In this document: positions 17,134 to 19,148 of the stretch, one piece after another
How positions within the stretch are numbered: position 1 is the stretch's first letter
How the letters are laid out: each line of letters opens with the position of its first letter
Virus record (IMG/VR): IMGVR_UViG_2925450510_000002
Source of the DNA: a virus
Lineage: Duplodnaviria > Heunggongvirae > Uroviricota > Caudoviricetes
Direction: 5' to 3' (one strand)
DNA length: 64,000 bases
Notes under the pieces: model-generated
What the model was told of the DNA's origin: nothing
Databases searched by the model: none
The model's input: only the letters and a program-made list of their open reading frames with translations
Program-made: the position numbers and the translations under genes

Positions 17134-18328
17134 GGAAGGTGCGAACAAGTTCCTGATATGAGATCATCATATTCATCCGGAGCGCATCCCAGAGGGACAT
17201 CATGAGCCATCAACTCACCTTCGCCGATAGTGAATTCAGCACTAAGCGCCGTCAGACCCAAAAGAGATTTTCCTCTCCCGCATGGAGCAGATTCTGCCAT
17301 GGCAAAACATGGTGGAAGTCATCGAGCCGTTTTATCCCAAGGCGGGCAATGGCCGACGGCCCTATCCGCTGGAGACCATGCTGCGTATTCACTGCATGCA
17401 GCATTGGTACAACCTGAGCGACGGTGCCATGGAAGATGCCCTGTACGAAATCGCCTCCATGCGCCTGTTTGCCCGATTATCCCTGGATAGCGCCCTGCCG
17501 GATCGCACCACCATCATGAATTTCCGCCACCTGCTCGAGCAGCATCAACTGGCCCGTCAATTGTTCAAGACCATCAATCGCTGGCTGGCCGAAGCAGGCG
17601 TCATGATGACCCAAGGCACTTTGGTGGATGCCACCATCATTGAGGCACCCAGCTCTACCAAGAACAAAGAGCAGCAACGCGATCCGGAGATGCATCAGAC
17701 CAAGAAAGGCAATCAGTGGCACTTTGGCATGAAGGCCCACATTGGTGTCGATGCCAAGAGTGGCCTGACCCACAGCCTAGTCACCACCGCGGCCAACGAG
17801 CATGACCTCAATCAGCTGGGTAATCTGCTTCATGGAGAGGAGCAATTTGTCTCAGCCGATGCCGGCTACCAAGGAGCGCCACAGCGCGAGGAGCTGGCCG
17901 AGGTGGATGTGGACTGGCTGATCGCCGAGCGTCCCGGCAAGGTAAAAACCTTGAAGCAGCATCCGCGCAAGAACAAAACGGCCATCAACATCGAATACAT
18001 GAAAGCCAGCATCCGTGCCAGGGTGGAGCACCCGTTTCGCATCATCAAGCGGCAGTTCGGCTTCGTGAAAGCCAGATACAAAGGGCTGCTGAAAAACGAT
18101 AACCAACTGGCGATGTTATTCACCCTGGCCAACCTGTTTCGGGTGGACCAAATGATACGTCAGTGGGAGAGATCTCAGTAAAAACCGGAAATAACGCCAG
18201 AAATGGTGGAAAAAATAGCCTAAATAGGCTGATTCGATGTGTTTGCGGGAAAAAAATCGGCCCAGATCCGCGAAATTTTAATCAGCGAGTCAGCTTGGGA
18301 AGAAATGACCTGCTTATTCGCACCTTCC
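17134..18328 (+). mobile_element. IS5-family insertion sequence (ISKpn26/IS5-like), copy 1, 1195 bp
   Basis: Ends GGAAGGTGCGAACAAG...CTTATTCGCACCTTCC. Internal InsH-like transposase. Flanks are CTAG (left) and TTAA (right). Confidence 0.9.
17202..18181 (+). pseudogene. IS5-family transposase with a 1-bp deletion frameshift near the 5' end
   Basis: Copy 1 reads GACCCAAAAGAGAT where copy 2 reads GACCCGAAAAGAGAT. This splits the ORF into 17202..17417 and 17282..18181. Confidence 0.8.
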
Positions 18329-19148
18329 TTAACAGCGTACTCCTGTCTACTTCATTTAAGTATTTAAATATACTACCTCTAATTATTAAAGATACAGGAG
18401 AATTTCCACAATAAACTAAATCGGCACCTGTTGGTTTCGCTAATTCTATTAATACATCAGCTGCTGATCCTGACTCGGGAAGTACACCAACAGGCCTCCC
18501 ACCTGAAAATGCAAGTATTTTACCTTCCAGCATGCTTAATTGGGGAAGCTCTTCAACATATGAATCAGGAACACGAAGGCTTCTTCGGAAATTGCTATCA
18601 ATCTTCTGATCAAGAATGGCATCACCAGCTTTCCAGGCATTAGTGTTGTCAACAATCTGCCTATCAACATAATTCTTCGTGGACGCATCCTGCGCCTGTG
18701 ACGGGTCACGCAGGTTACGAATGCGGTTGTTGAGTGCGTCGTAATAGTTCGCGAGCCACGATGGCTTCCTGAGAGATAGACCGGACCACCACCCATATGC
18801 CTGCTGCACCAGCATGGTCAACTTATCGAGAGCATCTTCGTGGATCTCAGGGAAAAAGCCACCCTGGTTCCTGATGCTGGCTTCCTGCGTAACCGGCGTG
18901 CTGCGCTCGATAGAGATTTTGTAGCCAGCTGGCAGCGCTGATGTCAGAACCACCTTCCCCCCGTTGTAACGGTTTACTCCGGTAACCGTGTAGTCGGTAC
19001 CGAGTGTTAGCGTCACGATGCTTTCGGAGGTATCCAGGGTCTGCACCAGCAGGTGGCTTTTATCCAGGATGCGGAACGTGAAATCGTATTGGGTAGTGGC
19101 GCCGTTTCCGGTGTACTCGTTACGGCTTACCTGCGTTGAAACTGTCAT
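18282..19148 (-). CDS. tail fibre / tailspike adaptor (T7 gp17 N-terminal-like), 3' end fused into the IS
   Basis: The N-terminal 120 aa follow the gp17 adaptor-domain pattern. The last 16 codons (18282..18328) are encoded by IS sequence. Confidence 0.6.
   Translation of the reverse strand: MTVSTQVSRNEYTGNGATTQYDFTFRILDKSHLLVQTLDTSESIVTLTLGTDYTVTGVNRYNGGKVVLTSALPAGYKISIERSTPVTQEASIRNQGGFFPEIHEDALDKLTMLVQQAYGWWSGLSLRKPSWLANYYDALNNRIRNLRDPSQAQDASTKNYVDRQIVDNTNAWKAGDAILDQKIDSNFRRSLRVPDSYVEELPQLSMLEGKILAFSGGRPVGVLPESGSAADVLIELAKPTGADLVYCGNSPVSLIIRGSIFKYLNEVDRSTLLRKVRISRSFLPKLTR

Follow-up and report, generated by a model that had tools for sequence, protein, structure and literature searches.

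A 64,000-nt stretch of Caudoviricetes DNA (the window; IMG/VR record IMGVR_UViG_2925450510_000002) contains an open reading frame related to the phage T7 tail fiber that runs directly into one copy of an insertion sequence (IS), and a second frame on the same strand that abuts another copy of the same element, on the far side of an entire phage genome. This locus raises the questions of whether both frames belong to one gene, what was lost between them, and how one phage genome came to lie inside another prophage. A reading of the window made from the letters only (the sequence-only reading) had proposed that one IS interrupts a fiber gene whose 3' end lies 39 kb away. The analysis reported here suggests a different history, to which we assign a probability of roughly 0.8: the tailspike gene of a Klebsiella pneumoniae prophage (B) would have suffered an IS-associated deletion, and B would later have entered a second prophage (A) by recombination between two IS copies. 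The features on which the argument rests are listed in Table 1.

Table 1 Features of the window that bear on the nested arrangement and on the tailspike gene.
Feature	Position	Strand	Remarks
cI of prophage A	16077-16745		just upstream of the split small gene
Small hypothetical gene of prophage A, 5' part	16907..17133	+	3' part resumes at 58853
CTAG, left target duplication copy in prophage A	17130..17133
ISKpn26 copy 1 (IS5 family)	17134..18328	+	1195 bp; 1-bp deletion at IS position 127
Phage B	18329..57656		39,328-bp epsilon15-like (Uetakevirus-like) podophage genome, circularly permuted; starts and ends inside the tailspike gene
Truncated tailspike ORF	18282-19148	-	288 aa; from the ORF list
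IS-derived tail of the truncated ORF	18282..18328	-	15 sense codons and stop
Tailspike 5' fragment	18329..19148	-	nt 1-820 of the 2262-nt gene (aa 1-273); ends ...CTGTTAA at the IS
Phage B tyrosine integrase	53866..55116	-	416 aa, intact
Phage B attP region	55117..55432		intact; between DUF2514 (Rz-like) and integrase
56-aa ORF	57318..57488	-	immediately downstream of the tailspike
Tailspike 3' fragment	57490..57656	-	nt 2096-2262 (aa 700-753 and stop); TTAG start at the IS
ISKpn26 copy 2	57657..58851, plus extra C at 58852	+	intact 326-aa transposase (57724-58704)
CTAG, right target duplication copy in prophage A	58853..58856

The truncated ORF consists of phage DNA for 273 codons and 1 nt, after which the right end of ISKpn26 copy 1 supplies the final codons and the stop, the first of the IS-supplied sense codons including one phage base. 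The ORF does enter the IS, as had been proposed, and the 16 IS codons counted at that time are 15 sense codons and a stop. An anchor domain of the PF03906 family (Phage_T7_tail) was found at residues 8-165 (E = 1.6e-9, 38.1 bits, cutoff 25.2), in agreement with the earlier assignment to the gp17-like part of a tail fiber or tailspike. In tblastn searches, this 5' piece matched the first ~250 residues of long tail fiber or tailspike proteins (777-789 aa), with 75-80% identity to those of the Klebsiella phages BUCT711 (Uetakevirus), ST512-KPC3phi13.3, and Kp4865-1, and about 51-56% identity to those of SPN1S, epsilon15, phiV10, and TL-2011b; the genes of the long proteins are followed by holins, lysozyme, DUF2514, and then an integrase or attR.

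The minus-strand frame that had been noticed beside IS copy 2 is indeed open from the left end of the IS to a stop at 57490-57492, and encodes 54 codons, RTFATVSGG...AKLRA* (full translation RTFATVSGGTWGITSASPTGVSLSFAISSDGKTLTVTLTAIDSASRVISAKLRA*). This 3' piece shares 64-81% identity with the last 54-55 residues of Klebsiella phage tail fibers and tailspikes (78-81% for the tailspike C-termini), and in the phages Smiley (annotated as "tail spike protein depolymerase") and RCIP0097 the match sits exactly at the C-terminus. The 742-aa Smiley depolymerase aligns with both pieces, the N-terminal one stopping at its residue 262 and the C-terminal one beginning at its residue 689. The small ORF downstream of the tailspike is likewise present next to intact alleles and in Smiley and RCIP0097 (73% identical). 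When the permutation of phage B is undone, the gene takes a late-operon position after the internal virion proteins and before the lysis cassette, in synteny with BUCT711 and ST512-KPC3phi13.3, and the 3' fragment is followed by the 56-aa ORF, Phage_holin_8, Phage_holin_3_7, a GH19 lysozyme, DUF2514, and the integrase; the match of this order to BUCT711 bears out the adjacency of the two pieces on the circular map.

The continuous gene was reached by a locus search of IMG/VR, and not by a protein search with the 55-aa C-terminal fragment, which returned only three short IS-fusion or partial ORFs. An uninterrupted 2262-nt (753-aa) allele with the same neighbors is present in an IMG/VR contig (L008) and in three complete K. 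pneumoniae genomes (L023, L024, and L025). Compared with three of these alleles (L008, L023, and L024), the 5' fragment has 14 mismatches over 820 nt, all within the first 268 nt, and the 3' fragment has none over 167 nt, being 100% identical to the C-terminus of the 753-aa allele; the 2057 nt downstream of the tailspike are also 100% identical between the window and the intact alleles. Agreement of this degree is far greater than chance would give, and the comparison at the nucleotide level confirms that the two frames are the two ends of one tailspike gene, whose true 3' end does lie at the other IS copy. A reading in which the 288-aa product is an adaptor that is short by nature, with the frame beside IS copy 2 unrelated to it, would fit the end of the ORF soon after the domain boundary but can virtually be discounted: its last 15 codons are IS sequence, a near-identical relative (P0005) runs on beyond residue 273 with NVVGAEVIVDYALQ..., as do the intact alleles, rather than ending near residue 272, and the other fragment belongs to the C-terminus of the same intact gene.

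The sequence-only reading had one IS sitting in an otherwise complete fiber gene, the two fragments making up the whole. The fragments are neighbors on the circular map, each abuts an IS end, and the gene was evidently cut by an IS; but the window retains only 987 of the 2262 nt of the intact alleles, tailspike homologues measure 708-789 aa, and the tetranucleotides next to the IS are 1275 bp apart in the intact gene, with no duplication. A simple interruption is hardly credible on these grounds. The gap between the fragments corresponds to nt 821-2095 (nt 8558-9832 of L023), i.e. 1275 bp or 3 x 425 nt (codons 274-698 and parts of the neighboring codons), and this segment was not found by blastn or tblastn anywhere in the window.

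The intact alleles encode a T7-gp17-like anchor, then a receptor-binding/depolymerase body with homology to Kp9 gp42, and finally a conserved C-terminus. The Kp9 gp42 tailspike (PDB 7xy1, E = 8e-37) is matched by residues 235-747 of the intact protein, and residues 245-752 are covered by PHROG 6518, "tail fiber protein". In a published description (PMC12295037), Kp9 gp42 forms a homotrimeric tailspike whose anchoring domain is T7gp17-like. The central body expected of a type A tailspike is present in the intact 753-aa allele and absent from the window copy, and the lost segment is thus, as judged by homology, the receptor-binding/depolymerase body. No other tailspike-like gene was found in phage B, whose large late ORFs encode tail tube/nozzle and internal virion proteins; as noted before, no separate tailspike or depolymerase gene is visible there, because the receptor-binding body was part of this gene and has gone with the deletion. 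Among INPHARED records, there was no carrier of the DNA of the variable part of this allele. The window copy is best classified as a pseudogene remnant of the T7 gp17-like-anchored (type A) tailspike family.

The sequence at the joint suggests how the body was removed. The right end of the IS adjoins a TTAA site (nt 817-820 of the intact gene) and its left end a TTAG site (nt 2096-2099), which are 2 of the 32 YTAR tetranucleotides in that gene. Flanks that are separate target sites and lack a duplication are therefore the signature of an IS-associated deletion, and they account for the joint that had previously appeared unclean. The pieces are in frame when simply abutted, because the missing 1275 nt are a multiple of three; the offset of one base described earlier is obtained only when a 4-bp duplication is removed, and it arose because such a duplication was presumed and subtracted. 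Two fits built on a duplication were rejected: one in which CTAA and TTAA are equated by allowing 1-bp errors, given the distance between the two tetranucleotides in the intact allele, and the frame that results from removing the duplication (LELLPLLVVERG...), which is not the frame of the intact gene.

Two routes could have led to this deletion. ISKpn26 may have inserted at the TTAA or the TTAG site and then, through intramolecular transposition, removed everything as far as the other site; or two ISKpn26 insertions may have been followed by recombination between them. The window sequence fits both routes, and we favor the adjacent deletion because, beside the same IS copy at the prophage A locus, adjacent deletions have arisen independently in three other genomes (L015, L039, and L043), two of them ending at TTAG. 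Searches of IMG/VR for the hypothetical junctions of an intermediate with a simple insertion at nt 817-820 or nt 2096-2099 gave no matches. The two observed IS-tailspike junctions, used as exact patterns, likewise gave none in IMG/VR, and the observed junction of the IS with the 3' fragment gave none in GTDB representative genomes.

The element itself is well defined. It has the features of ISKpn26, namely a length of about 1196 bp, terminal inverted repeats GGAAGGTGCGAA(C/T)AAG, and a transposase with a DDE_Tnp_1 domain (PF01609), which accompanies a DUF772 domain in the 326-aa ORF, and the window sequence is 100% identical to plasmid copies annotated as "IS5-like element ISKpn26 family transposase". 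A canonical length of 1195 bp with shifted ends was considered and rejected, the element being 1196 bp in L026 and related loci; elsewhere in the tailspike gene, L026 has a clean canonical copy (GGAAGG...CCTTCC) bounded by a 4-bp duplication. The two window copies are direct repeats, 40,522/40,523 bp apart, and are identical except for one internal 1-bp indel and the first base. The 1-bp deletion in copy 1 splits its transposase ORF (17202-17417 and 17282-18181), and copy 2 in this assembly lacks the first G of the left inverted repeat and carries the additional C at its right end.

Clean 4-bp duplications surround ISKpn26 in L026, L037, and L038. Neither window copy has one: copy 1 is flanked by CTAG and TTAA, and copy 2 by CTAA and CTAG. 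Unmatched flanks of this kind are expected for recombinant or deleting copies. The outer flanks of the pair do match each other (CTAG), and the inner flanks are the two different sites of the tailspike gene.

The whole genome of phage B sits between the two direct ISKpn26 copies inside prophage A. Its gene content (GP7 capsid protein, T7-like portal, terminase, early genes, integrase, and lysis cassette) is that of an epsilon15-like podophage, with PF20911, PF12236, PHROGs 376, 394, 342, 418, and 308, and integrase domains; tail tube/nozzle and internal virion proteins were also found, as was the placement of the integrase beside the lysis cassette. BUCT711, classified in Uetakevirus, is among its closest records. 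When the outer flanks are joined with a single CTAG, they are 100% identical over 520 nt to uninterrupted A in six Klebsiella prophage records from ST11, ST340, and ST512 strains, and the host of the window prophages is Klebsiella. E. coli was considered and rejected: in E. coli genomes, megablast with the abutted fragments found nothing, and phage B gave only patchy BRO-N/moron matches.

DUF2514 and the integrase adjoin in the window as they do in the virion genome of BUCT711, which indicates that attP of this B copy is intact. Homology of the region to attR loci (L006 and L030) ends at 55312, and homology to attL loci on the guaA side (L031-L034) ends at 55322. We infer that this copy of B cannot be excised by its own integrase, since there are no attL and attR, and that it would be released only by recombination between the IS copies. 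The integrase gene itself is intact but was not used for this insertion.

The window matches CP027053.1 (GCA_001702045.2) at about 1,664,292-1,728,291 with 100% identity, and the coordinates agree (L035 and L042). Only this assembly shows three 1-bp oddities: IS copy 2 lacks its first G (57656/57657), an extra C is present, and IS copy 1 has its deletion (at about 17260); the IS junctions in L022, L037, and L030 are canonical. These oddities could be real mutations or consensus errors within the repeats, and the conclusion is the same in either case. They do resemble consensus or polishing errors, and one could suppose that B is a separate circle, or lies elsewhere, and was threaded into A through the IS repeats by the assembler. 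Such an artefact is very improbable: the A-IS-B and B-IS-A junctions recur in several independent complete assemblies, and long reads readily span a repeat of 1.2 kb.

The states found in other genomes suggest an order for the events, which is read from those states and not from a phylogeny and is to be taken as tentative to that extent. Prophage A is frequently found with just one ISKpn26 at the same site, bounded by a clean CTAG duplication (L037, L038, and others), and the truncated 81-aa ORF that results from this insertion is indexed in 115 blocks. In GCA_947662825.1, one contig (L017) ends within the IS right after ...CTGTTAA, and another (L030) starts within the IS just ahead of TTAGAAC... 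and extends across the lysis genes as far as attR and the sulfatase genes; the 3' side of L006 is the same. From these two short-read contigs that end inside the IS, we infer that this genome carries the IS and the same deletion in a B prophage at the normal attB. The nested arrangement is also found in other complete genomes (L015/L022, L016/L040, L041, and L044), one of which has a further copy of B, at attB (L033; 1 mismatch over 5.4 kb).

Taken in this order, the tailspike deletion would have occurred while B resided at its normal attB (the guaA...sulfatase locus). A circular B with a single IS would then have recombined with the ISKpn26 already present at the CTAG site beside cI of A, giving A-left-IS-B(permuted)-IS-A-right. 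Recombination between two IS copies is the most likely origin of the nested arrangement, although IS copies 1 and 2 offer no informative polymorphisms that would mark a crossover.

Transposition is a less likely explanation. Here, an IS on a circular B would form a cointegrate with A, making the CTAG duplication de novo, or an IS-B-IS composite, whose source might be, for instance, a tandem lysogen or a circle bearing the IS twice, would jump into A. Two direct IS copies do bracket the cargo, with the CTAG duplication at the outer ends, and a cointegrate formed by ISKpn26 transposition would produce an identical structure; a composite from a circle with an IS at both tailspike sites would even explain the 1275-bp loss in one step. 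However, related genomes commonly have A with a single ISKpn26 at this exact CTAG site, so that no new duplication has to be assumed, and a deleted state with a single IS seems to be present at attB. Moreover, in every complete genome read that has the 288-aa ORF, the IS beside it borders prophage A, and no other site was seen, so that there is no sign of movement of the IS-B-IS unit. We rank transposition below recombination because the CTAG duplication pre-exists and the unit is seen only at this site.

ISKpn26 and other changes have struck the tailspike gene elsewhere: the insertion in L026 is at nt 934-937, the same site is hit in a different allele (P0003), L020 has a frameshift, and L007 has a truncation. 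One could read the ISKpn26-B-ISKpn26 unit as a way for a phage copy to bypass its integrase and an occupied attB and enter another prophage, and the repeated independent hits as selection against a prophage-encoded capsule depolymerase in its own host, but we regard this as improbable. If the bypass were real, B could leave prophage A as a circle or travel with it.

The intact form of this tailspike has well-characterized relatives. The tailspikes of Kp9 (gp42, PDB 7XY1/7Y1C), BUCT711, and ST512-KPC3phi13.3 share the PF03906 anchor, with 75-80% identity to the Klebsiella Uetakevirus-type proteins, and the body of the intact allele matches that of Kp9 gp42; the position after the internal virion proteins and before the holin and lysis genes is that of Uetakevirus and other Klebsiella podophage tailspikes. 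Unlike these three, the window copy has lost the body (aa 274-698), its anchor is fused to 15 IS-encoded residues, and no separate start precedes its C-terminal 54 codons.

ISKpn26 insertions and IS-adjacent deletions have been described in K. pneumoniae, e.g. in cps genes (bioRxiv 10.1101/628339). The events described here resemble them in the identical element, the YTAR-type 4-bp targets, the inactivation of a gene, and the adjacent deletions that other genomes show at the A locus. They differ from the cps cases in that the target is a structural gene of a prophage and that the IS later served as the joint for the insertion of a whole phage genome. Circular DNA can integrate by recombination between IS copies, as F does in Hfr strains, and the window shares with such IS-mediated replicon fusions a circle flanked by two direct IS copies with the target duplication of the recipient outside. 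In contrast to them, the circle is a temperate phage with an unused integrase and attP, and the recipient is another prophage. Literature searches on ISKpn26 with prophage and tail, and on type I tail fiber, returned nothing specific to this locus.

In summary, all that B at this locus is predicted to make of its tailspike is a 288-aa anchor stub that lacks a receptor-binding domain, and its virions would be non-infectious. Because the receptor-binding body is deleted, the tailspike gene is, as far as its sequence tells, an irreparable pseudogene that even precise loss of the IS would not restore. Annotators should treat the 288-aa "Phage T7 tail fibre protein" together with the orphan 3' frame as the two remnants of a single pseudogene, and should score phage B at this locus as defective, with neither a receptor-binding domain nor attL and attR. 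What prophage prediction presents as a 64-kb "prophage region" is two phages nested through IS copies, which may mislead the counting or typing of prophages and depolymerases. The decay and rearrangement are IS-driven and of an ordinary kind, all of their components and mechanisms are familiar, and several public genomes already contain the sequences. For the biology of K. pneumoniae, the locus is a further documented case of ISKpn26 reshaping its genomes, and it raises no new question.

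Compared with the intact alleles, the interrupted tailspike gene of phage B shows all 14 of its mismatches within the first 268 nt (window 18881-19148), and identity is 100% from nt 269 on (window 18329-18880), the lysis cassette included. The change in identity at nt 268/269 is a mosaic boundary that falls within the anchor domain, as is typical where tailspike modules have been exchanged. At the other end of the gene, the tailspike is followed by a short ORF (see table), which shares 73% identity with its counterpart at the same position in two unrelated phages, Smiley and RCIP0097, and 52% with VLC1 gp51. 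This ORF and the tailspike C-terminus appear to travel together as a module.

Damage to the tailspike gene is not restricted to the window, as it has also arisen independently in three related loci (L026, L020, and L007) and in a related protein (P0003), by insertion, indel, or truncation. The repeated damage may mean that the gene is a hot spot, or that it is selected against.

Features of phage B, prophage A, and related tailspike genes.
Feature	Location	Description
tRNA-Arg(TCT) gene	window 37942-38018	strand opposite to the late genes; within phage B, between portal and terminase regions
Perfect 83-bp tandem duplication	window 21991-22156	repeats the beginning of a small ORF (MKEAKTTLRYPQKVKEEFKRIAEEEG...)
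56-aa ORF	window 57318-57488	directly after the tailspike stop codon; PHROG 519
Equivalents of the 56-aa ORF	L003 3670-3840; L004 3670-3840; L005 3673-3837	
Deletions beside ISKpn26 in prophage A (L015, L039, L043)	equivalent to window 14283, 59143, 59317	
Tailspike of L026	L026 7475-8670; insertion at tailspike nt 934-937	clean ISKpn26 insertion
Tailspike of P0003	same codon-699/700 site	IS in a different tailspike allele, only 78% identical
Tailspike of L020		1-bp indel
Tailspike of L007	aa 314	cut off by a deletion reaching into chromosomal genes

A second lesion of phage B is the loss of 751 bp at window 21529/21530, revealed by comparison with three loci of the nested arrangement (L015, L016, and L040) and with the contig that ends in an IS after the tailspike 5' fragment (L017); of the P22_AR_N antirepressor gene, which otherwise encodes 314 aa, this leaves a 169-aa ORF (21446-21955). 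The 83-bp tandem duplication is also found in L015-L017 and in L042, the CP027053.1 locus identical to the window. It adjoins a gene that is named Arc/RHH-like in related loci. Phage B is itself duplicated in GCA_900607945.1, where, besides the nested arrangement (L015/L022, 1.87-1.93 Mb), a nearly identical integrase and early region of phage B occupies the normal guaA attB (L033, 3.62 Mb).

In prophage A, three different deletions begin exactly at one of the ends of its ISKpn26, and in two of the three the motif AATTTAATTAG adjoins the far end. The IS copies of the window also carry three 1-bp indels in their sequence or at their ends, one at 17260 in IS copy 1 and two at the ends of IS copy 2 (57656/57657 and 58852). 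These indels are private to the assembly CP027053.1, related genomes having the canonical sequence, and may stem from faulty polishing of repeats. A genuine 1-bp deletion in IS copy 1 would frameshift the transposase of this copy.
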